Origin: Mustelus asterias
Taxonomy: Eukaryota
Direction: 5' to 3'
Assembly (NCBI RefSeq): GCF_964213995.1
Contig: NC_135815.1
Coordinates: 49,786,001-49,850,000, forward strand
Length of the DNA: 64,000 nt
Under the pieces are notes generated by a model. That model did no database searches, was not told the origin of the DNA, and saw only the letters and a list, made by a program, of their open reading frames with translations. Shown here in pieces: positions 1 to 64,000 of this stretch. The translations under genes and the position numbers were made by a program. Position 1 is the first letter of the stretch. Every line of letters begins with the position of its first letter.

Positions 1-1805
1 TGATGTTCCATAAAATGAATATAAGATTGGTAGCTCTCTATGCCAATTCACAATGTTTACCAGAAGTTAGCATTCCATGTTGCTTACCATGAGGTGTAGC
101 AAAGTTTTAGGTCACATCACACTTACTGACCCTGCATATGCCAGTCTTATGCTGTTTGGCAGCTATAAGTATTCTTGGATTAGTTGGCACAATTCTGCAC
201 TTGTCTTTCTGCTGGCCAAGACGCTAAGGAGACAAATTTCCATTTCAAAATTTGCAGAAATGCTTGATGTCTTGCCCACTTGAGAATTATATTTTTATAA
301 GCAGAAAGCACATTTAAAAAATTTCTGACAAAGATGGTTCCAAATATTTTTATTATTCCTGGATTATGGATGGAAAAATCATCCTGAGTTCCTGTTAGTT
401 TAGTTGTTTTTCAGTGAATTCTGCTGGACGTTATGCGTGTGGGAACATCAGATGACCTTAGGCTGTGATGGCCTCTCAGTTGAATAATCTGACATCATGC
501 ATACTCTTGGTTATGCATGATTAATGGTGTCTTGGGTGAGGTACTAGATCATGCAGGTGAAACCATATCCTTACATGAATTAGCACTTACAAGAGAGAAG
601 AGGAGAAAATTGAAAAATACCATGCTAATTGTGTAAAGAGAATATAAGGAAGTGTCATATACTTTGGTTTTTGGGGAGGAAATAAGAGTCTTATGGAAAA
701 TTTCAATGTTCCCAAACATTGTATAAAAGTGACCTTAAATGTTTTCCAATGAAATAGATTTAAGTAGTCTTGGAATAATTTTGTCCATGGTAATTTGAAG
801 GTAATCATTTTTTGTTTTATTTTGCTGCTTAAATGAATTGACAGTATTTTTAATGAAAAAGTTTTAAGGTCAGTTACTAAACGACTATTTTGCTGTGATG
901 TGATTTAAAGTATACTTAGCTTAATATTTTTCCATTGTTGCATTTGAATTCTATTCAAAGAGCACCCCTCACAACAAATCTGTCTACTCTTTTGATCTGA
1001 CAGTTTTGCTGAATGGAATGTTTTGAATGGAATACTATATCGTAGTATGTGAAAGTAATGCAGTGGTTAACTCCTTTACAGCATGCTGTAGAATATTGGA
1101 TATCAGTAAAATTCATAGTTTTTGTTACATTTAGATTATCTCTATGTTGCTGCTTCTGCTGTTCTTCAATCAGCATTCAAATTAGTCTGCTGACCACAGT
1201 TTGACTGTTAATATTTCAGTTAGTATGCTGCCTGAATACAACCCTCTGACATTTGTAATATAAAAATAGTATTCAATAATAAATAAAGAGATGGGTCATA
1301 TCCAAGTTGAAGATCTACATTAATATGTTTCTCTGCACTGATTTAGAATAAACTATACCTCATCTGCAAGTATCATTTCACAAAACTCAAAAGAATTTCA
1401 AGTATCATGCTACATCAATGTGAACGTTTAATACTTATGAACACACTTAACATAGCAATAATGCCATCAAACTATCTTGTAATGTGGCCTAAGCACACTG
1501 ATTAAAATGTTGATATCTGACTCCTGCAGGCGCAGGTTTGAATATTCCCAGCACCAGCTAACACTAGACCTAAGCTGTCTTGCCTACCTGAATGAATGAG
1601 GTTGTGTAAGGATGAACAAAATAAATAAAATGATACAAAATGTCTTCCTTGTCTGTTTAGTTATATGATCAGAATGTGAATTTACTGTTTATAAAACAGC
1701 AAACCTGTTAATACCCTCAGTCACTATGCAATTATTTTAAAATCTTGAACAGCTGGTAAGAAACACTTAACATTGTATTATGTTTTAACTTGCTTTCCTT
1801 TGGAG

Positions 1806-1820
1806 GCAGGGAATTGTCAA
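1806..1820 (+). CDS. EML6: EML6 15-nt microexon, (R)QGIV(K)
   Basis: tttaacttgctttcctttggag|GCAGGGAATTGTCAA|gtaagt. Phase 2/2; peptide resembles the recalled EML5 linker insert RQGVVRGSR. GAG acceptor is atypical. Confidence 0.72.
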
Positions 1821-3177: not shown

Positions 3178-6100
3178 AACATAGGAACAGGAGTAGGCCA
3201 TTTAGCCCCTCGAGTCTGTTCTGTTAATCAATGAGATTATGGATCATCTGTGACCTAACTCCATATATCTGCTTTTGGCCCATATCACTTAAAACCTTTG
3301 TTTAATAAAAAATTATCTACCTCAGATTTAAAGATAGCAACTGATCTGGTATCAATTGCTGTCTGTGGAAGAGAGTTCCAAACCTCTACCACCCTTTGTG
3401 GGTAGAAATGCTTCCTAACATCTCTCCTGAATAGTCTGGCCCTAATTTTTAGACTATGCCCCCTAGTTCTAGAATCTCCATCCAGTGGAAATAGTTTATT
3501 TTTATTTATCCTGCCTTTTCCTGAAGACTTTGATCAGATCACCCCTTAATCTTGTAAATTCTGAAGAAATAAGGCCTAATTTGTATAATCTTTCCTGAAG
3601 TCCAGGTATTATTCTTGTAAACCTATGTTGTACTCCCTCCAACAACAATACATCCTTCTTAAGTTGTGGTGCCCAGATCTGGTCACAGTACTCAAAGGGG
3701 TTCTAACCAGGGTTTTGTATAACTGCAGCATAACTTCTGTGTCCTTATATGCCAGTCCTCTAGATATAAAGGCCAGCATTTCATTAGCCTTCTTGATTAT
3801 TTTCTGCACCTGTCCATGGCATTTTGTAGATCATGCACCTGAACCCCCAAGCCTCTTCGGGTATCCACTGTATTTAATATCATACCATCTAGAAAATGCC
3901 TTGATCTTCTTTGTCCAGAATGGATAACCTAACACTTGCTTACATTGAAATCCATCTGCCAGTTTTGCCCATTCACCTGGTCTATCAATATCCTTTTGTA
4001 ATTTTATGCTATCATTTACACTGTCTACAATGCTGCCTAACTTTGTGTCATCAGCAAATTTAATACATGACTTTCTATGCTATTATCTAAATTGTTAATA
4101 AATAATGTGAATAACTTAGGTCCTTGTGGGATACCACTAATCACATTCTGCTAATTTAAGTACTTATCCATTATCCCTATTTTCTGTGGTCTGTCATTCA
4201 GCCTATTTCCCAGCCATGTCAGCAGTTTGCCTTCAATTCAATTTTCATTGAACAAAATCGTTGCAGAATAAACAACATTCTCAAGCTTTATTGTTGAGTG
4301 TGAATTTTTTACTTGAGCAAATAAGATGTTAACATAAACTTTAAAATGTAAGAGAATTACATGAAGCAAAAACTTGTGGTTGCATTTCCAGGACATAGAA
4401 ACCTAGGGAACTCTGAAAGATTATAGTTAATCTACAACATGCTCCCTTACTTTCCTTAACACCTCTGATGGAAACTGTCAGGTCCTGAGGATTTGACACA
4501 TTTTAGTTCCATTAATTTCCTCATTACCATTGTTTTACTCACGTAAATTTTATTTAGACTCTGTCCCTGATCCATTATAAATTTCCTTGGGACTTCTGGC
4601 AAGCTATCCTCCTTTTCTACTGTAAATACTGAGGCAAAATAATTATTCAACATGTCTGTCATTTCCCCTAAGTCATTGACAATAGCTCCACTTTCAGTCT
4701 TTAGTGGGCCAACATTGCTTCTGACCACCTGCTTTCCCTTCATGTATCCATAAAATATTTTCTTGATTTTGATGTCCCTTGCAAGTTTCCTTTCATAATG
4801 CCTTTGACAAGGTACCAACCACATGGTAGGTTGTTGCATAAAGTTAAATCTCACAGGATCCAGGTTGAGGTATCCAAATGGATACAAAATTGGCTTCTTG
4901 ACAGAAGCCAGAGGGTGGTTGTAGAGGGTTGTTTTTCGAACTGGAGACTTGTGACCACCGGTGTGCCTCAGGGATCAGTGCTGAGTCCACTGTTATTTGT
5001 CATTTATATTAATGATTTGGATGAGGACATAGGAGGCATGGTTAGTAAGTTTGCAGATGACACCAGGATTGGTGGCATAGTGGACAGTGAAGAAAGTTAT
5101 CTCCGATTGTAACGGGATCTTGATCAATTGGGCCAGTGGGCTGACGAATGGCAGATGGAGTTTATTTTAGACAAATGCGAGGTGATACATTTTGGTAGAT
5201 TGAACCAGGGCGGGACTTATTCAGTTAATGGTAGGGCGTTGGGGAGAGTTACAGAACAAAGAGATCTAGGGGTACATGTTCATAGCTCCTTGAAAGTGGA
5301 GTCACAGGTGGACAGAGTGGTGAAGAAGGCATTCGGCATGCTTGGTTTCATTGGTCAGAACATTGAATACAGGAGTTGGGATGTCTTCTTGAAGCTGTAC
5401 AAGACATTGGTAAAGCCTCACTTGGAATACTGTGTGCAGTTCTGGTCACCCTATTATAGAAAGGATATTATTAAACTAGAAAGAGTGCAGAAAAGATTTA
5501 CTAGGATGCTACCGGGACTTGATGGTTTGAGTTATAAGGAGAGGCTGGATAGACTGGGATTTCTTTCTCTGGAGCGTAGGAGGCTGAGGGGTGACCTTAT
5601 AGAGGTCTATAAAATAATGAGGGGCATAGATAGGGTAGATAGTCAATATCTTTTCCCAAAGGTAGGGGCGTCTAAAACTAGAGGGCATAGGTTTAAGGTG
5701 AGAGGGGAGAGATACAAAAGTGTCCAGAGGGGCAATTTTTTCACACACAGGGTGGTGAGTGTCTGGAACAAGCTGCCAGAGGTAGTAGTAGAGGCGGGTA
5801 CAATTTTGTCTTTTAAAAAGCATTTAGATAGTTACATGGATAAGATGGATATAGATGGATATGGGCCAAATGCGGGCAATTGGGATTAGCTCAGGGGTTT
5901 AAAAAAAAATGGACAAGTTGGGCCGAAGTGCCTGTTTCCATGCTGTAAGCCTCTATGACTCATAATCCCTATTTGCAGCTCTTATAAGCAGCTTTGTGGC
6001 CCTTTGCTGGTCTTTGTATCTTTCCCATTCAGCAGTTTCTGTTTTTTGCATTTTTGTAAGCTCTTTCTTTTAGTTTTATGTTGTCCCTTACTCTTTAGTT

Positions 6101-6405: not shown

Positions 6406-7976
6406 GATAAAGATTTCAAAATTAAAGTTGGAAAACCATTGTTGGTCAGAGGTGACTGAGTGTAGGACGAAGGGGACAGAGTTAATAGGTGTGTGGTGGG
6501 AATATGCAACTGTGTTTAAGAAAATCTGAGTTTATCAAACTACAGATAGGGGAACAGCATGAAGTACATTAGAGTACTCAAACCTTAAGGTGATAAAGGC
6601 AGGAAAACCACTGTGGAGCTGAAGTGAGCGATGTTACAAATGTAGAAGTAAATTATCTTTTTGATAGACAGGGTATGGAGTGTAAGCAATGTTACCAATA
6701 ACCTGGCTCATCCTGAGACTGACTGGGAATAGGAGGGGCAACAATGGCAACGAAGCAGTTGTTCAAGTTGAAAATGATTGTATTGGTCTTCCTAAACTGA
6801 AGTTAGAGGAATCATGACTCATGTAAATATTTGATAGTGGACAAGCAGTTAGACAGCACAAACAAAATAAGGGTCAAGAGAAGTTGTGGAAAGATGGAAC
6901 TGCGCATTATTAATATACGTGTGAAAGCTCATCCCAAATGTACAAATAAAAAAAACTTCTTTGCGTGAACTTGTCCACTAGCTAATGTCCCCCTCAAACA
7001 TATTCAACATACTTTCTGCATGCCATTTGTACAGTATCAGTAAGCATTTTGCTATGATCGTCATGGAGGCCAATAACATGAAAATCAAACTTTCCAAATG
7101 ACCACAACAGAAAACCTGATGGATAAGATTTCACTTTTTTAAAACTTATACTGTAACAACCAAACCCAAAATCAACCTAAATTATACATAAACTACAGAT
7201 AAATAATGGTCAATTACAAACTATAAATTACATATTAAATAGCAAATACAACTAAGACAGATCTCTCAAGTTTACTCGGCAGTCCACTCAGCATATATGT
7301 CATCAATCTCAGTTCCAAATTCCTTCAAAACTCTGTTTTCCTCACAAAGAATTCCGGCTCCTCCTCTTCTAGGATTTAGCCTGATCCCCAGCCAACAACA
7401 GTCTTCAACCAACTCATGTTCCATGGGCATGGTCTTCACCAAAATGACACACCTCATTTTGCATTAACTTAACTTCAATTTAATTTTAAATTAGATAACT
7501 ATACCTCAGGAATTGTTACTTTGATTAAATGTACTTGTCACAAAAGAAGCTGCCAGTTGTTTATTCTTGAATATTTTTAAATGGAATGTTATTTAAAGAT
7601 TTGGTATTATTCAACATTTTTCTTTCCAGAAAATGCAAGTACAGTAAGTATCATTAAGTACCTATTATAGAGGGTAAACTGAACATAGTATTCCTGGGAA
7701 GCATTGACAAAGCTTCCTTCTTTTTTTCCTCCTTATTCTATAGGAGCTTAGTACAGAATTTTGCCGGTGATGCCAGGGTATGGGTCTTCTGAATTTGTGG
7801 ACTGGTGCGCTCTGATTTTTGGTTTTATTTGCTGGCATGATTGAGAAGCATGGTTTGTGCCACACAGGAATGTTTATTGAAACTGATGAAAGTGCCTGTG
7901 CATGTATTCAGTTATTTTATACATTTTTCCTAATTATACTAATTCTTTTCACTTGACATTATTTGCTGCTGGCAAG

Positions 7977-7985
7977 GGGATCCAG
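7977..7985 (+). CDS. EML6: EML6 9-nt microexon, (K)GS(R)
   Basis: atttgctgctggcaag|GGGATCCAG|gtaact. Phase 2/2; completes RQGIVKGSRPPVSR with the flanking exons. Confidence 0.75.
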
Positions 7986-8604
7986 GTAACTCACTAATTT
8001 TATTCACAGTTTTTAATAGTTTGTTTCCTGGATATGTTGTGTAACACTGAACTAGCATGTCAGTTGAATTTTCATTTAAAAAGTACCCAGTGTCCTTGTA
8101 GTTGTTTGCATCACTCCTTGGATAAGTATGAAAATTTGTATTCATAAAAAAACAATGTTTGATTTATAAACCACTGTTTATTTATGATTGATGAGAAACA
8201 TGAAAGTGATCTGCATTCACTGAAGCAGACAAAATTAAGTAAGGAACTAATGGAGGTGCTCACAATTTGACAGGGTATACAGGAAAGAATATTTCCACTG
8301 ATTAGTGAATCAGTAATATGCGGACACAAGTTTAGGAGATGGCATGAAAGGGGAGATTAAAAGATCCTGGAGAGAAATGTCCTTACCAGGAAGCTTGCAG
8401 AACAACCAATTAGCAGCTGCACCAGAAGGCCTTGTCTTTTTTAATGGATAGATCTCATTAACATTCCATCACTAGCTACTACTCAAAACAGGTGTCAAGA
8501 AGTAGTTTGCTGACTATGGACCTATAAAGCTTGGCAGCCTGAAGGACACTGAATTGACAGTCAGGTACATCTTCTGAGAGAGCTCAGAAATGAGGAGTGG
8601 TTGG

Positions 8605-14203: not shown

Positions 14204-14472
14204 TTTAGTGTAAGAACAATTTGGGCAAAAGAGGCAGAGGTCCAATTATATAACTTTCTGGATTTTTTAACTCCTGTTTTCCAGTACAATTCTTGCATCA
14301 TTGACTCACAAATTGCTAATCTATCTTGTGTTGAAAGGATTTTATAATTACATGGTTAGAAAATTGTCAGTACTTAGAGCTTTTCAAAATCCTGATCTAC
14401 AATTATTAGTGAACACATTTATAATGTTACACAGCAGTTACACAGTTATATTTTCCATTAATTTAATTGCAG

Positions 14473-14551
14473 ACCACCTGTCAGCAGAGCGGCTCCTCAA
14501 CCAGAAAAACTACAAAAGAACAATATTACCAAGAAGAAGAAATTGGTGGAG
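14473..14551 (+). CDS. EML6: EML6 exon, (R)PPVSRAAPQPEKLQKNNITKKKKLVE
   Basis: ttgcag acceptor, gtaaga donor, 79 nt (phase 2 to 0); matches recalled EML6 sequence preceding the third HELP motif. Confidence 0.95.
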
Positions 14552-15039
14552 GTAAGAAAATCCCTGGCACTGTTCTTTTTTTAAAAAAAACTTTTAATGT
14601 AGCTTGTCATCTTAAATCAACAGTTGATCAAATATCAAACACCACTGCATTAGTTTTGAAGTCCTAAAATTCACTAGTGGTGGAGCCATTTATAACAGAT
14701 GGACGACAGGTTTGGATTTGCCGCACCCCAAGCCATGTGTCTCATGGCAGCAGCCCCATTGGCCAGCAGTGGGATCTTCTGGTCCCACTGTTGTCAACAG
14801 GGTTTCCTGCTGTATGAAGCCCCACCACCAGGAAACTCATGGTGAGGGTTTGCTTTCAGAGGAACTGGAAGATCCTGCCAGTGTGAATGGCCAGAAAATT
14901 CTGGTCCTTGTCACCCCAAAACTCTGAAAAAAGTACTTGACGAGATTTTAATCAAATTTGTAAACTATTCCTCTTTGAAAGCTAGAGGTGCGTCGGTCAA
15001 AGGTGACTCACTTAAAAATTCATTTTGAACATTATAAGT

Positions 15040-30000: not shown

Positions 30001-33000
30001 ATCCTGTGAAAGGTCAGTGCTTAGAAACAGTGAAGTACAACAAAGTGTGTAAAGAAAAGTTTATTATCCTGGGGATGTACAATTTTAGATTTGCATGTGG
30101 CAAATGTAAGCTTATAAATTGAATTTACTGAGTGCGATGGGGATCTTGCCCACCAATGGGAGCCCTGCATTGCTTCTCTCAGATGAAATTACAAAGTAAT
30201 CAATGTAATCAAGCACTTATTTGGACAGTGTCAGGTCTCCCACTCGATTAAACATCCAGAAGGATAGAAATTAATTGATTCACTAGTTATGGCTGAGTGT
30301 GGACAGGATTAGGGTTTGCAGGGATGGGTTGTTAGTGAGGGGGTTGGTGATTTTAATAGGCATCTTCTTCCCGATGCTGGATCCCTTGATTAGGCAGAGT
30401 CTCACCTGGAGCTCGATCGGGGGAAATCAGGAAGGCAACGGGGTCACCACCCATACCCTCCACTTCAGCTGAATCAAACGGCTCCCCACCTCTGAACTTG
30501 CCAGGGGGAGAAACATTAAATTCCACCCAATACTGAATGTTAAGGCATCCATGCGGAGTGCTGCTATACCACACACACACACGATTAGAATTCTCCAGCA
30601 GGTAAATATAATGGAGTTGTTGAGAAACGTACTCAACCAATACAACGTGCAATGGTCTGATTTTCACTAATTTTGCCTATGAGGTGGGTGTTTCACTCTG
30701 GCATCAACCTTGCAAATATGTAGGATGGCCCTGAAATTGGGATGGATCCCCTGCTGGCTCAAGTCAATTATTACTCTTGTCCTGTACACATGGAAACAAT
30801 TCCCATCTGGGAGTCCAAAACTGGCCCCTACTTTGAGATGGTAACCTGTAGTTTTCACTTAAAATAATCCACCTCTCTGTAGTTTCCTCTTTCCAATCAG
30901 CCAACTCTGATTTTGATTCTTGTTTTGCCTTCTGTGATTTATTATTATAGCTATTTCTATTATAATTGCTCTCTAATTTTGTTACCCAAAACTAAGTCCA
31001 GTTTTACAGCATCTATTATATAGCATGTTAGATACCAATTCAAAAACATATTCTTCACAGCATTCTCAATATTTCTCTTAATTTAACCCCCATTATATTT
31101 ATTCCCAATAAGTTCACAATTTCTTTCAATTTTGTAGGATGTAAATGATAGTATATTTTGTAGCATGACCTTCATTTACCCTTTAGCTTAACACAGGGAT
31201 TATCAGCAAATTATTACTTGCAATATATTTCCTTTCTATTGTTGAATTATTTCCTTACAAAGTAATGCTACACTTCTCCATTTTTGCTCAAACCTCTTCA
31301 AAAAGTGATATAGCTTAAAATGCTTAGTCTATATGCAACATGTGAACCCAGATTTCAGTTAAAGCAACAAAATCATGTTTTATGCGGTTGTTGCTTCTAA
31401 TTCCCTTGATTTTATTTTATAATACTTACACTTTTTAGCTCTTCTCATTGCTATTTGTAACTTCTATTCATTCTCTGCTTCATTTTTCACTCCGAAATAC
31501 TTCTTGTTTGTTCTTCTTATGCCTACTGTACAAGTCACATTATCAGCTCATCTGACCATTTAAAAATTATTTTATGGGATGTGAGCCAACATTTATTGCC
31601 CATCCCTAATTGTCCTTGAGATGCTGGTGGTGAGCTCACTTCTTGAATAGCTGCAGTCCATGTGGCGTAGGATCACCCAAGGTGCTGTTAGGAAGGGAAT
31701 TCCAGGATTTTGACTCAGCAACAGTGATAGTATATGTGGCTTGGAGGGGAACTTTCAGGCGTTGTTGTTCCCATGTATCTGCTGCCTTTATCCTTCCACG
31801 TGGTATGGTCGTATGATTGGAAGAAACTTTCAAGTGTTATCTGGCTTTGTCATTTCTCCTATTGTTTGAAAGTTCTCTCTTACATCCTTTCTTGTTGGAA
31901 TTTTTATAGCCTGAACATTCCTAGCTCATGATCTCCCTTGCCATTCAAATTATATCCTTCATAATTAATCCTCTCGGAGAATAATCATGCAATTTCAAGA
32001 TAAAATGAAGTATCTAATTTCCATCATTTCTAGGTTGTGCCTCGATGCTCCCTAAATCTGAAAACTTCCCATCTGCTGTGTTCTTAAGCCTTTAATTTTC
32101 CTCTACGTAGGTAGCTCAGCCTGGGCTAAACACTGTAGTACAAAGGTCTGGCACATATAAGGTTAATGTGGGACTGAGTATAGTATGGTTCAAACATGAC
32201 CTGCACCCAGATCAGTCTACTGTTGGACAGAGCCTATGTACTAGCAAACATGTTGACACCTCCTAGCTTGTATCCTTTGGTGTATATTTGTAAATAATTC
32301 TCTAAGACTCAATAAAAACTTAGTTAACCTACATATGACTACGAAGACTTCTTCAGACCTAATGAACTGTAACCAACACCTTACAACATGGTAGGAGGTT
32401 GTGGAAAAACCCAAAATCTCACAAAAACTAAAATGCTGGAGGACCGAGGAAAAATTCAGCAAAACAGTCTGACCTGAAAAGAAGCTCCAGAAGCAGAGAG
32501 ACAGAGGCAAAATCATCAGCAAGAAAACTCCAAAGAAAGCATTGGGAGCTGGAGGCAGAAAGTTAAAATCCCTTATTGCAGCAGAACGCTCTATTGAATC
32601 TCCTTTGGAAGACCAGCTTCTAATCCCAGACACCTAGCAGGGTTAAGCTGAATCTTTTAAAACTCCAGGCTACAGCAAGTCCTGAGAAATCTTTAAATAA
32701 TTCAGAGTCAGAACTGCAGTTTGAAGAAAACCATCATTAAAGTCAGATCCCCGCGTCGGCGTCTGAAAATGTGGCATCAAAGCTTGCTCTGAAACAACAT
32801 AATCTGGGAGAATCATGATTTCTAAACTCAGCTGACAGAAAACAAAACCAGGATTCGGCAATTTGTGTCTTTAAAATAAAACGCTGAGCAAGAGATCTCT
32901 GCAGGCAGTCGATCCAGGCATTGGTTGTTGAATTTTTTTTTCAAGCAGAGTGCAATCACCATTATAGTGAGCCTGCCAAAACCAACAAGCGTGGGAAAGC

Positions 33001-39253: not shown

Positions 39254-39274
39254 GTGATATTACAGACACAACAG
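39254..39274 (+). CDS. EML6: EML6 21-nt microexon, GDITDTT(G)
   Basis: ttgcaattgctatctcaatgcag|GTGATATTACAGACACAACAG|gtaagg. Phase 1/1; same position and length as the recalled EML5 insert GDSADMSA. Confidence 0.82.
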
Positions 39275-40465: not shown

Positions 40466-42820
40466 AAGAGTTTTAACAACACCAGGTTAAAATCCAACAG
40501 GTTTATTTGGTAGCAAATGCCATTAGCTTTCGGAGCGCTGCCCCTTCATCAGATGGAGTGGATATCTGCTCTCAAACAGGGCATACAGAGACACAAAATC
40601 AAGTGACAGAATACTGATTAGAATGCGAATCTCTACAGCCAACCAGGTCTTAAAGATACAGACAATGTGAGTGGAGGGAGCATTAAGCACAGGTTAAAGA
40701 GATGTGTATTGTCTCCAGACAGGACAGCCAGTGAGATTCTGCAAGTCCAGGAGGTAAGCTATGGGGGGTTACTGATAGTGCGACATAAACCCAAGATCCC
40801 GGTTTAGGCCGTCCTCATGTGTGCAGAACTTGGCTATCAGTTTCTGCTCAGCGACTCTGCGCTGTCGTGTGTCGTGAAGGCCGCCTTGGAGAATGCTTAC
40901 CCGAAGATCAGAGGCTGAATGCCCGTGACCGCTGAAGTGCTCCCCCACAGGAAGAGAACAGTCTTGCCTGGTGATTGTCGAGCGGTGTTCGTTCATCCGT
41001 TGTCGTAGCGTCTGCATGGTTTCCCCAATGTACCATGCCTTGGGACATCCTTTCCTGCAGCGTATCAGGTAGACAACGTTGGCCGAGTTGCAAGAGTAGG
41101 TACTGTGTACCTGGTAGATGGTGTTCTCACGTGAGATGATGGTATCCGTGTCGATGATCCGGCACGTCTTGCAGAGGTTGCTGTGCCAGGGTTGTGTGGT
41201 GTCATGGTCACTGTACTCCTGAAGGCTGGGTAGTTTGCTGCGGACAATGGTCTGTTTGAGGTTGTGCGGTTGTTTGAAGGCAAGAAGTGGGGGTGTGGGG
41301 ATGGCCTTGGCGAGATGTTCGTCTTCATCAATGACATGTTGAAGGCTCCGGAGGAGATGCTGTAGCTTCTCCGCTCTGGGGAAGTACTGGCCGATGAAGG
41401 GTACTCTGTCCACCGTGTCCCGTGTTTGTCTTCTGAGGAGGTCGGTGCGGTTTTTCGCTGTGGCGCGTCGGAACTGTCGATCGATGAGTCAAGCGCCATA
41501 TCCTGTTCTTATGAGAGCATCTTTCAGCATCTGGAGGTGTCTGTTGCGATCCTCCTCATCCGAGCAGATCCTGTGTATACGGAGGGCTTGTCCGTAAGGG
41601 ATGGCTTCTTTAATGTGTTTAGGGTGGAAGCTGGAGAAGCGGAGCATCGTGAGGTTATCCGTGGGCTTGCGGTACAGTGAGGTGCTGAAGTGATCGTCCT
41701 TAATGGAGATGCATGTGTCCAAGAATGCAACCGATTCCGGAGAGTAGTCCATGGTGAGTCTGATGGTGGGATGGAACTTGTTGATGTCATCATATAGTTG
41801 TTTCAGTGATTGTTCACCATGAGTCCAAAGGAAGAAAATGTCATCGATGTATCTAGTGTATAGCATCAGTTGAAGGTCCTGTGCGGTGAAGAAGTCTTGT
41901 TTGAACCTGTGCATGAAGGTGTTGGCATGTTGAGGTGCGAATTTGGTCCCCATGGCTGTTCCGTGTGTCTGGATGAAGAACTGGTTGTTGAAAGTGAAGA
42001 CATTGTGGTCCAGGATGAAGCGGATGAGTTGTAAAATTGCATCTAGAAACAGGCAGTTGTCGGCATTGAGTACTGAGGCCGTTGCAGCAATGCCATCATC
42101 GTGGGGGATGCTGGTGTAGAGTGCCGAGACGTCCATTGTGGCGAGGAGTGCTCCTGGTTCAACTGCTCCATGTGTGCTGAGTTTCTGTAGGAAGTCCGTA
42201 GTGTCGCGACAAAAGCTGGGGGTTCTTTGTACAATGGGTTTCAGGATGCTCTCGACATAGCCGGAGAGGGTCCCATTGCCCGATACGATGGGACGGCCGG
42301 GTGTGTTTGCCTTGTGTATCTTCGGAAGGCAGTAGAGATCTCCAACGTGGGATGAGAGCACGGAGGGTGCTCTGAAGGTCCGGATCAAAGGTCTTGATCA
42401 GAGTGTTGAGTTGATGGGTGTGTTCTTTGGTCGGATCTGTGGGTAACTGTCTGTAGTGTTCCTCGTTGTTCAGTTGTCGGTACACTTCTTTGCAGTAATC
42501 CGTTCTGTTCAGTATGACGATTGCTTCTCCTTTGTCTACTGGTTTGATGACAATGTTGCGGTTGGTCTTGAGAGCGTGGATGGCGTTGCGTCGTGCTTGG
42601 GTGATGTTCGGGGCTGTCTTGTGAGTGCAGCTGATGAATTTGATGTTGACGCACCTCCTGACGGCTTGGGCATACATGTCAAGTCGAGGGCAGCAGCCTT
42701 CCGGAGGAGTCCAATTCGACTCTTTCCTCTTCGGTTGCACTGCGGATCTCTCTGTCGGCTGTTCCGGTTCATTGGCTGTCTCATTGTGTTCGCTGTTGGC
42801 CTCTTGGGGTTTGTGGAAGA
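40466..42820 (-). mobile_element. Penelope-like retroelement (RT plus GIY-YIG endonuclease), 5'-truncated, 14-bp TSD
   Basis: RT motifs LPKIHK..PGRPIVS, GTAMGT, RYIDD (41489-42388); GIY-YIG NVVYLIRC..YIGET..RMNEH (40769-41413); TSD TCTCCCYACTAAGT at 40452-40465 and 42821-42834; a few stops and frameshifts. Confidence 0.95.
40520..40556 (-). ncRNA. Minimal hammerhead ribozyme motif in the Penelope 3' pLTR
   Basis: Minus strand CCAU-CUGAUGA-A-GGGGC AGC GCUCC-GAAA-GC-UA-AUGG. Confidence 0.8.
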
Positions 42821-54877: not shown

Positions 54878-55404
54878 TAAAGTCTTTGCAATTAGATTTA
54901 TTCAAATAATTCTGACTCTACAAAAAAATGTTTAAAAGCCGTTGAGATTTTATGAGGTGTAATTTATTTTCAGAAGAAAAGGAAATCGAATTGCATAGGA
55001 AATAGGCAGTTGATTCACTATCACCGCTTTTGTGCTGCCGCACCTTGATGAATTTCACCCTCTGCTGTGATATCACAATAAGAAACCTTCAATTTAGTGA
55101 TTACATTTTTCACAGGACGAATATAAAATTGAAGTAACGATTAAAATTCTGGGGGTAAATGGTTAAGAATAGTTACAAAATTCTACTTCATCTCTATTTG
55201 CAATGCACAAAAATGTATTATTCCAATTATTCCAAATTGTTGATGGACATGCATCATGGAATTATTGCAAAACTGTGAGCAGAATTCTCCCATGGGTTCA
55301 ATGTTGAGCAGTGGGGGAAGAATTCAGTGGGAGGCCCAAAATCCAACATGAATTTCCTGCAAGATCTTCTGCTGGTGCCCACCATGGCGGATCAGGAATC
55401 CCGA

Positions 55405-56550
55405 GGGTTCAACATTGGGACTCTTGCTCTTCCTGATTTATATTAATGACCCAGACTGTGGTGTGCAGGGTATGATTTCAAAATTTGCAGCTGATACAAA
55501 GATTTGGAGCATTGCCAACTATGTTGAGGATATTCTTGTACTTAAAAAGGACAGACATATTGGTGAAGTGGGCAGACAAGTGGCAGATGGAATTCAATGC
55601 AGAGAAGTCAGAGGTGATTCATTTTGGCAAGAAGAATGTGGAGAGACAGTATGAAATAAACTCCAAGGAAAGTGCAGAAAATAAGAGACCTTGGCATAAA
55701 GTAAATAAAGTTGCCATAGTCTGTGAAGACCATTGGCTGCTCTCCCCTTTGAGAAAGAGAGCTGACTGGTGGTGATTTAATCTGAAAGTCACCGCATTCA
55801 GGGGAGGAGAAAGGTTAAGAAGGTGGGGCCTCCATGAAAACTTCAACCAGTATGGGAATTGAACCCGCACTGTTGGTGTTGCTCTGCATCACTAAGCTGT
55901 TGTCCAGCCAAGTGAGCTGAAGGTGGCACTGCATATTGAGAGAACAGTTAATAAAGCACATAGTATCCTAGGTTTTATTAATAGGAGAATTGAATACAAG
56001 AATGAGGAGGTCATGTTGAACTTATATACAACACGAGTTAGGCCTCATTTGGAATACTGTGTCCAGTTCTGGACACCCTATTTGAGGAAGGTTGTGAAGG
56101 TGTCGGAGACAGCATAGAGTGATTCACAAGAATTATTCCAGGGATTAACAACTGTGGCTATTAGGATAGATTGGGAAGATTAGATCTGCCTTCCTTGAAG
56201 AAAAGGCGGCTGAGATGAGACTTTACAGAATTATTCAAGATCCTGAGGGGAATGGACAGGGTAAACATTGAGGAACTGTTCCCTCTCAAGAGTACATAAG
56301 GACACATTCAAAATAATGGGCAAAAGGAGTAGAAATGATGTGAGGAAAGGTTTTTTTACTTAGAGGTTAGAGTCTGAATGAACTTCGAGAGGGTGATGGA
56401 GGCAAGTTCTATCAAGGTATTCAAAAGGGAATTGGATTTCCATTTGAAGTAATGTGCAAGGTTACGGGATGAACTAGAATGGTCTTTCAGAAAACCAGTG
56501 TAAACTCGATAGGCCGATGGCTTCCTTCTGCACTGTAAAGATTCTGTGAT
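55405..56550 (+). mobile_element. Degraded CR1 3' portion with inserted SINE
   Basis: LLFLIYIND..SKFAADTK, WQMEFNAEK, RPHLEYCVQFW; 3' tail near 56550. Confidence 0.88.
55697..55918 (-). mobile_element. tRNA-derived SINE
   Basis: Minus strand AGCTCACTTGG (A-box-like) and GGGTTCAATTCC (B-box-like); interrupts the CR1. Confidence 0.7.
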
Positions 56551-61639: not shown

Positions 61640-62516
61640 TAGTGACATCAGAATTAACCAATTAAAAAAGTCAGCAGGAGTACAAACCCATCTTCCTATT
61701 ACACTTGGTCACCAGAATACTGATACAACACCTAAACTACCTCTTTACCAACTCAGTGCAAAGAATTCCAGACAATACCAAACATCTCAACATCATCCTG
61801 AGGTTCTCACCATCACAAATGATAACCTTTAACCAATTTGATTCACCCCCTTATGGTCTCAAGAAACAGCACCCTGATGCAGCAAGGTTTTGTCAAAATC
61901 TGACTGTAATGCAGAAGACCTAATGCAGTGCTCTAGAACTAGTCACAGCCCTCACCACACTGTTCTAGTACAGCTCCAACAATGCAAAAATGGATCCAGG
62001 TATTTTTTGACCACAAAAAGCAGGTCACATCCAACCCAGCCAATCAGCAGTATTTTACCAAGTCTGGCAGCAAGGAGACCTGAATATGGGGATCAGAGGG
62101 AAAACTCTACAGTGGCTGGAATCATAAGTGGCACAATGGAAGATGGATGTGGCTGTTGGACACCGGTCATCTCAAGCCAGGATATTTTAGCTCGTGGCCC
62201 AACTACCTTCAATTGTTTCATCAATGACTTCCTTACATCCTTCAGACTAAAATCGGCATGTTGACTGACGATTAAACAATGTTGACCCCGATTTGTAATT
62301 CATTAGATAATGGAGCAGTGCTTGCTCACATGCAGCAAGACCTGAACAACATTCAGGTTTGTGCTGATAAGTGGCAAATACCACTTGTATTACACAAATA
62401 CAGTCTCCAATAAGAGAGGATCTAATCACCTTTGCTTGACATTCAACTGTATTACCATTGCTAAGTCCCTCACCATAAACATCCTGTGGTTTACCATTGA
62501 CCTGAACCTTAACTGA

Positions 62517-63310
62517 AAATGGAATTTAATCCAGACAAATGCAAGATGATGCATTTTGGTAGATCCAATTCAGGTGGGAGCTATAAAATAAATGGCAGAA
62601 CCATCAGGAGCATAGACACACACAGAGGGATCTGGGAATACAGGGTCCACAGATCCTTGAAAGTGGCAGCACAGGTGGTAAAGGTGTTGAAGGAGGCATA
62701 TGGCGTGCTCGCCTTCATCTGGACATAGAGTATAAAAGTTGGCAAATTATGTTACAGTTATATAAAACGTTGGTTAGGCCACATTTGGAATATTGTGTCC
62801 AATTCTGGTTACCACACTACCAGAAGGACGTGGAGGCTTTGGAGAGAGTACAGAAAAGGTTTGCCAGGATGTTGCAGGGTATGGACGGTATTAGCTATGA
62901 GGAGAGATTGAATAAATTGGGATTATTCTCCCTGGAAAGACAGAGGCTGAGGGGCGACTTGATGGAAGTTTATAAAATTATATGGGGTATAGATAGGGTG
63001 AACAGTTGGAAGCTTTTTCCCCAGGGCAGAAATGACAATTACAAGGGGGCATAAGTTCAAGATAAGGGGGGAAAGATTCAGTGGAGATGTGCGGGGGAAG
63101 TTTTCTTTACACAGTGGGTGGTGGGGGCCCGGAATGCACTGCCAAGTGAAGTGGTTGAGGCAGTTATGTTAGCCACATTTAAGACTTATCTTGATAGGCA
63201 TATGAACAAACAGGGAATAGAGAGATTATAAGCAGTTGGTCTAGATAGGACAACGTGATCGGCGCAGGCTTGGAGGGCCGAGGGGTCTGTTCCTGTGCTG
63301 TTCTTTGTTT
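62517..63310 (+). mobile_element. 5'-truncated CR1 inserted in an older LINE (about 62070-63465)
   Basis: MEFNPDKC, LYKTLVRPHLEYCVQFW, RLRGDLMEVYKI; host resumes at ggactagccac. Confidence 0.9.
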
Positions 63311-63671
63311 GGACTAGCCACGTAATTACTGTAAAGACAAGAGCAGGTTTTGAAGGTTAGATGATCTGGTGTGTGACTCCCCAAAGCTTCTCCAGCATTT
63401 ACAAGGCATACATTTCTCTAGCATTTACAAGGAGTGTGATGAAAAATGCTCTACTTGCAATTTCACATGTTGTTGCAGTTTATAACAGTTAAGTTCTCTG
63501 TAGTTGACATGGGAAGACAGAACATAAGCCAGGGATGGGTAAGGACCAGGATCCAATGGGAGGAGGAAAACCCAAGTGTGGGAAAAAAAGGGAAACCATA
63601 CTCTGTACCTCTCTTATCCTATCCAAGTTCTAATTCCTTCCATCTTTAGGGGAGGAGAGGAGGGCGGAGGG

Positions 63672-64000
63672 CCAGGATGTTGCCTGGTCTGGAGGGTATT
63701 AGCTTATGAGGAAAAGTTGGATAAACTCAGTTTGTTCTCACTGGAACGACGGAGGTTGAGGGGCGACCTGATAGAGGTTTACAAAGTAATGAGTGGCATG
63801 GACAGAGTGGATAGTCAGATGCTCTTTCCTAGGATAGAAAAGTCAAGTACTAGGGGACATAGGTTTAAGATGCGTGGGGAAAAGTTCAGAAGAGATGTGC
63901 GAGGAAAGCTTTTTATACAGAGGGTGGTGAATGTCTGGAATGCACTGTCCGAGGAGGTGGTGGGAGCAGGTACTATAGCAGCATTTAAGGGGCATCTGGA
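63672..64000 (+). mobile_element. CR1 3' fragment running off the window
   Basis: RRRLRGDLIEVYKVM..SSTRGHRFKMRG. Confidence 0.9.

Follow-up and report, generated by a model that had tools for sequence, protein, structure and literature searches.

Can a stretch of nine nucleotides within an intron of more than 15 kb be a regulated exon, and what would its inclusion do to the encoded protein? The question is raised by positions 7977..7985 of a 64,000-nucleotide stretch of the Mustelus asterias genome (G000:C15:49786001-49850000, hereafter the window), which is the EML6 locus of this shark; all window features described below lie on its + strand. We consider it very probable that this stretch, here called microexon B, is a 9 nt microexon of shark EML6 and the last member of a 24/15/9 nt tandem cassette contained in one 15-kb intron, that it is likely skipped by default, and that it is likely switched on by SRRM3/4 in neurons and photoreceptors. 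The exon, its partner, the sharing with EML5, the isoform models and two SRRM_C genes are documented by sequence and database records.

Tandem microexons in one intron of shark EML6

The RefSeq model P0125, labelled EML6 of Mustelus asterias by NCBI, matches the window exons at 85-100% per tblastn block, values below 100% coming from blocks that overrun exon edges. A quick tree built from 20 proteins puts P0125 within the EML6 clade (SH-aLRT 100), together with EML6 and not with EML5. The upstream constitutive exon, identified by its match to P0125, ends 885 nt before the window (around G000:C15:49785115). The downstream constitutive exon (14473..14551, PPVSR...KKKKLVE) lies directly before the third HELP motif, matches P0125 at 100%, and is joined to the next exon in contigs X1, X3 and X6 from related species. 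The intron between them is 15,357 nt long. P0125 splices the upstream exon straight to 14473, skipping three microexons of 24, 15 and 9 nt; microexon B thus corrects this gene model.

Microexon B consists of the letters GGGATCCAG, flanked by AAG and GTAACT, with an AAG acceptor at 7974-7976 and a CAG|GTAACT donor. It is stop-free, in phase 2-2, and adds the residues GSR. It is a frame-preserving exon within the 3-27 nt range with AG/GT sites and, judged by inspection rather than with a splice-site score, combines a weak 3′ site, a distant branch point and a good 5′ site. The 15 nt microexon A (1806..1820) adds QGIVK and has a GAG acceptor, a UGC at -15 and a GTAAGT donor. The junctions of the upstream exon, A, B and the downstream exon are all in phase 2 and preserve the frame. 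An earlier note on this DNA had placed A, B, the downstream exon and four motifs around B at positions that all proved correct on re-reading. Within A, an internal CAG could provide an alternative, frame-shifting acceptor for an 11 nt exon (1810-1820); the mouse Eml5 15 nt exon MmuEX0016814 is listed with 11/15 nt alternative acceptors (PMC8797185).

The AG-9nt-GT[AG] pattern occurs 127 times on the + strand of the window and is therefore frequent by itself. Stop-free candidates with GT[AG] donors number 27 of 9 nt, 25 of 15 nt and 23 of 24 nt in the EML6 intron. Among the 127 patterns, all 7 scored features come together at 7977 alone, the runner-up having 3, a contrast that is inflated because the features were picked after viewing the 7977 site. 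The chance of finding a single motif in the scored windows is 0.054 for TGCATG, 0.021-0.024 for each ACTAAY and 0.007 for TGCTGC. The candidates at 1806 and 7977 encode exactly the isoform peptides of other species. Judged from sequence, it is this exact agreement with isoform models, together with the presence of the same pair in EML5, that is decisive for A and B, and not the motifs.

The earlier note was right about A and B but overlooked a 24 nt exon in the same intron. The best of 4 candidates for this third microexon (845..868) adds SIFNEKVL, has TGCTGC upstream and an AAG|GTCAGT donor. Its peptide matches catshark models P0133/P0134 (SIYNEKVL) and skate models P0145/P0146, which all carry 8 extra residues ahead of the A/B insert. 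No counterpart was found among 4 candidates in shark EML5, nor among the fetched EML5/6 models of bony vertebrates.

We surveyed isoforms in 234 fetched EML5/6 proteins, 50 of them without anchor, which are annotation models rather than raw reads and were listed at up to 15 members per cluster. The plain junction of the skip form is the commonest class (115/234). EML6-type forms comprise RQGIVKGSR with both exons (17), RQGIVK with the 15 nt exon only (8) and RGSR with the 9 nt exon only (4: P0008, P0036, P0043 and P0129), and EML5-type forms comprise RQGVVRGSR (16), RQGVVR (4), RQGIVRGSR (1) and RQGIVR (1); the remaining anchored models show 17 other or odd forms. The EML5 peptide given in the earlier note, RQGVVRGSR, was accurate: the proteins carrying it include human P0178, and 7 of its 9 residues are identical to shark EML6. 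Four linker isoforms had also been predicted. They do exist in EML6 models across species, but any one species has at most three among the models listed, and no species has all four. Both Chiloscyllium plagiosum and Polypterus senegalus show three (both exons, 9 nt only, none). Frog EML6 models contain either the 15 nt exon only (3: P0016, P0018 and P0203) or no insert, and never the 9 nt exon, possibly through loss or sampling.

Presumed-RNA contigs of relatives, from 8 of 24 listed runs, were mapped to positions 14380-14650. Contig X1 shows the skip junction only. Contigs X3 and X6 end 4-7 letters short of exon 14473 and are thus uninformative on inclusion; the X6 contig fits from 14470, which is consistent with 9 nt inclusion on the strength of a single letter. 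From X7 came a 36 nt piece unrelated to the exon, and X2, X9, X12 and X14 gave no match in this interval. An inclusion junction was thus not found in the contigs of these 8 runs (1 skip, the others uninformative), and contigs can drop minor splice forms.

Could the 8-residue insert come from one 24 nt exon or an alternative acceptor instead of two exons? The bamboo-shark model P0122 does fill 8 residues by another route, but mouse Eml5 lists separate 15 nt and 9 nt exons in a single intron, and a common 24 nt source was rejected: 0 of the 23 stop-free candidates of that length encode the peptide, which the 15 nt and 9 nt exons do in both paralogues. We regard such an origin as extremely improbable. 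The proposal that the insert is built from two separate microexons 6.2 kb apart is borne out by the 15 nt and 9 nt candidates and by the models that include one exon alone. Alternatively, B could be a silent relic that this species never includes, as might be thought from its skipping in P0125 and from the lack of an inclusion contig in the relatives' runs. Against this, B retains intact splice sites, an intact UGC element and nine coding letters identical to those of mouse, and models of catshark, bamboo shark, sevengill, skate, ray and chimaera include it. We find this second alternative very unlikely.

The EML5 paralogue and the age of the pair

Shark EML5 lies on C18, minus strand, where the matching intron is 7,415 nt long and contains a 15 nt exon (G000:C18:65081657-65081643) paired with a 9 nt exon (G000:C18:65078121-65078113). 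Mouse Eml5 likewise has separate 15 nt and 9 nt exons (the latter at chr12:98819860-98819869) annotated in one intron (PMC7821500). The pair thus occupies the same intron in both paralogues. UGC is found at -13/-10 before both 9 nt exons and at -15/-14 before both 15 nt exons. The 100 nt upstream of B align between EML5 and EML6 better than 500/500 shuffles, and the other flanks are at chance level, with the score reached by 404/500 shuffles upstream of A, 208/500 downstream of A and 63/500 downstream of B. An ACUAAU downstream of B is common to both genes (+19 in EML5, +8 in EML6). As opposed to EML6, the EML5 intron has no GCAUG within 150 nt of B, no ACUAAU upstream of it and no 24 nt exon. 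Since EML5 of the same genome has the same 15+9 structure, the pair predates the EML5/EML6 duplication. The earlier note had suggested as much but understated the age.

Amphioxus models take the pair further back. The 15 models listed from a 58-member amphioxus cluster comprise RKGIVKGSR (4), RKGIVK (4), the plain junction (6) and a partial form (1), the amphioxus and shark inserts being identical at 8 of 9 residues. In the 20-protein tree, amphioxus falls outside EML5+EML6. Because amphioxus has models with 5 and 8 added residues and branches outside both paralogues, the 15+9 pair was likely already in place in the chordate ancestor. In lamprey, 15 listed models show RGTR (2), an odd predicted insert (2) or none (11). 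Exon structures and motifs in amphioxus, lamprey and teleosts are deduced from proteins. The insert peptide is absent from the anchored models of 1 tunicate, 22 echinoderms/hemichordates, 21 protostomes and 5 non-bilaterian or unlabelled outgroups, although with so few invertebrate models this absence carries little weight. Brittle-star models P0427, P0502 and P0505 have an optional insert of 15 unrelated residues at this point of the linker, which suggests that an alternative exon arose there independently.

Conservation of SRRM3/4 microexons in general has been described in PMC8797185 as dropping fast outside vertebrates, even in amphioxus, whereas the EML5/6 tandem pair appears common to amphioxus. 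The pair is thus a good test case for microexon conservation, since it appears to have been kept from the chordate ancestor despite the reported fall-off. A chordate-level age was not found in the literature searched, though it may already be on record elsewhere. This age and the third, 24 nt exon of cartilaginous fish are modest additions to what is catalogued. The main remaining value concerns evolution, in that a cassette of two exons was, to judge from protein models, kept through the gene duplication into EML5 and EML6.

Candidate regulatory motifs and probable control by SRRM3/4

A UGCUGC at 7964..7969 (UGC at -13 and -10) is the likely SRRM3/4 element of B, lying between the branch point and the 3′ AG as in EML5. 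The likely branch point region, 7930..7943, contains CUAAU (-47) and ACUAAU (-39, ACTAAT at 7938), and may be a dual QKI/SF1 site; no AG is found from -66 to -3. A second ACUAAU (+8, 7993..7998) is a possible QKI site, so that ACUAAY motifs of QKI type stand on both sides of EML6 B, as compared with the downstream side only at EML5 B. The UGCAUG at 7899..7904 (-78), a possible RBFOX site, is one of three upstream GCAUG (7835, 7848 and 7900), and one more occurs downstream at 8055 (+70). GCATG is found 70 times in the window, and the four within 150 nt of B compare with about 0.3 expected. Exons of the RBFOX-enhanced class have a conserved downstream (U)GCAUG; the UGCAUG of B is upstream, with none near EML5 B. 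The RBFOX and QKI motifs reported in the earlier note are thus present, but UGCAUG and the upstream ACUAAU are not common to EML5 and by their position would repress rather than enhance. Two models, P0122 and P0266, read through the intron before B and give LLLSR and LLLTR, which fits a UGCUGCUG acceptor kept in other species, an indirect indication drawn from peptides and not codons.

In the literature, UGC is the SRRM4 element, RBFOX sites upstream of an exon are expected to repress it, and QKI and SF1 are rivals for ACUAA branch points (PMC13004596). UGC is described as neither sufficient nor strictly necessary for the SRRM4 response (10.1101/2024.09.17.613571). We propose that the tiny size, AAG acceptor and distant branch point of B would make it too weak for default recognition, that SRRM3/4 bound at UGCUGC would rescue its inclusion in neurons and photoreceptors, and that upstream RBFOX, with QKI at the ACUAAU branch point, might damp it in other cells. 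The SRRM_C domain (PF15230) is found above cut-off at two loci of the shark genome, C12 and C13.

Direct evidence on regulation comes from orthologues. The mouse Eml6 exon MmuEX0016830 (chr11:29764950-29764958, 9 nt) is classed as eMICdep in table S2 of PMC8797185, a class defined by a drop of inclusion on Srrm3/4 loss. In PMC7821500, which lists it as chr11:29764949-29764958, it has 279 reads and a conservation score of 3.8, and is missing in GENCODE but known elsewhere. Gene, intron and length correspond to those of shark B, and the supplement row gives the same bases at 9/9 positions (PMC7821500). Inclusion and SRRM3/4 dependence have been measured in mouse, whose transcript lists no 15 or 24 nt partner (two rows in PMC7821500, neither with a 15 nt exon). 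Mouse Eml5 MmuEX0016814 is eMICsens (PMC8797185). The human EML5 15 nt exon HsaEX0022381 has a PSI of 89 in retina versus 10 elsewhere, responds to SRRM3/4 expression by +16 to +73 in 4/4 measured conditions, and is modelled in an exposed coil (PMC9303857; 12/18 supplement files). SRRM3/4 control, as had been proposed for the shark, is thus backed by mouse and human tables: splicing-in (mouse reads) and SRRM3/4 dependence (B in mouse, EML5 A in human and in mouse) belong to orthologues and by analogy would extend to the shark.

Microexon B is accordingly real but not new. It is a rediscovery of a known exon of a known class, already present in VastDB-derived and MicroExonator tables for mouse and in the gene models of other sharks. 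It resembles SRRM3/4-dependent neural and retinal microexons in its 3-27 nt in-frame size, the UGC near its 3′ site, its cytoskeletal host gene and its deep conservation. Our full-text literature search found no main text naming EML5/EML6 microexons. Neither gene appears in the supplements of PMC12626424 (12 files) and PMC12626420 (12/13 files), and those of PMC7935315 (12/19 files) hold one eml5/eml6 expression row only.

The splicing pattern of B in the shark might instead depend chiefly on QKI and RBFOX, with a contrast such as muscle, heart or glia against neurons and only a minor part for SRRM3/4. The flanking ACUAAU motifs, the GCAUG cluster and the downstream ACUAAU common to EML5 speak for it, and a Snap23 muscle microexon reported to be under QKI/RBFOX2/MBNL control offers a precedent. 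A mouse embryo table, moreover, does not flag the 9 nt Eml6 exon, covered in <10% of samples, as brain-differential (PMC7821500). This also speaks against our main reading, as does the Eml5 15 nt exon, which that table puts in an 'included' cluster, not a neuronal one. However, inclusion of the mouse orthologue of B drops when Srrm3/4 are lost, as its class is defined, and UGCUGC is the best conserved element between the paralogues, GCAUG and the upstream ACUAAU not being conserved. We consider this unlikely and favour SRRM3/4 control.

The EML6 linker and other features of the locus

With A and B included, the basic segment that precedes the third HELP motif and TAPE domain, likely a flexible linker, grows from 47 to 55 residues, its K+R count rises from 10 to 12 and one serine is added. 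By analogy with EML4, a longer and more basic linker may tune binding to tubulin tails or partners. According to 10.1101/466979, EML1 and EML4 bind tubulin tails through a basic region ahead of the TAPE domain, and whether EML5/6 bind microtubules is left unclear; the basic linker is a concrete handle on this question. We found no solved structure covering the EML6 linker, the closest being EML1 4CI8. Dctn2 is likewise reported to have adjacent microexons (9+6 nt) in one cytoskeletal gene unrelated to EML, and a microexon in DAAM1, also unrelated, extends a linker with a tested function, whereas none was found for EML5/6.

Regulation may be as described and the added residues still hardly affect EML6 function, the insert being a tolerated spacer. 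The dominance of the skip form, the occurrence of other inserts at the same junction in brittle star (3/22 echinoderm/hemichordate models) and the weak phenotypes reported for most single microexon deletions in zebrafish agree with this. Conversely, the identity of 8/9 residues between amphioxus and shark and of 9/9 bases between shark and mouse points to selection on the sequence, part of which may be splicing signal. Such neutrality seems to us possible, if somewhat improbable. More doubtful, and offered tentatively, is a fuller functional reading. The 15+9 pair would have come down intact from the chordate ancestor as a tandem cassette, among the few that amphioxus also has, with the third exon added in cartilaginous fish. 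It might then act as a graded dial of charge and length on the basic segment, giving EML5/6, which do not have the microtubule-binding N-terminus of EML1-4, a neuron- and photoreceptor-specific microtubule binding.

Elsewhere in the window, a further optional exon of 21 nt (39254-39274) adds 7 residues in TAPE3; it has a counterpart in the shark's own EML5 (around G000:C18:65063940-65063920) and in lamprey models, and is absent from the amphioxus models listed. A profile-library search returned mostly fragmentary matches. LINE fragments with reverse-transcriptase-like frames, which we take to be CR1-like, occupy introns at 4705-5886, 55350-56110, 62510-63230 and 63540-64000. A highly similar repeat, with translated blocks mostly 80-100% identical, occurs at about 41200-42330 of the window and in an EML5 intron (c18rc ~30530-31650), and is probably a recent mobile element.
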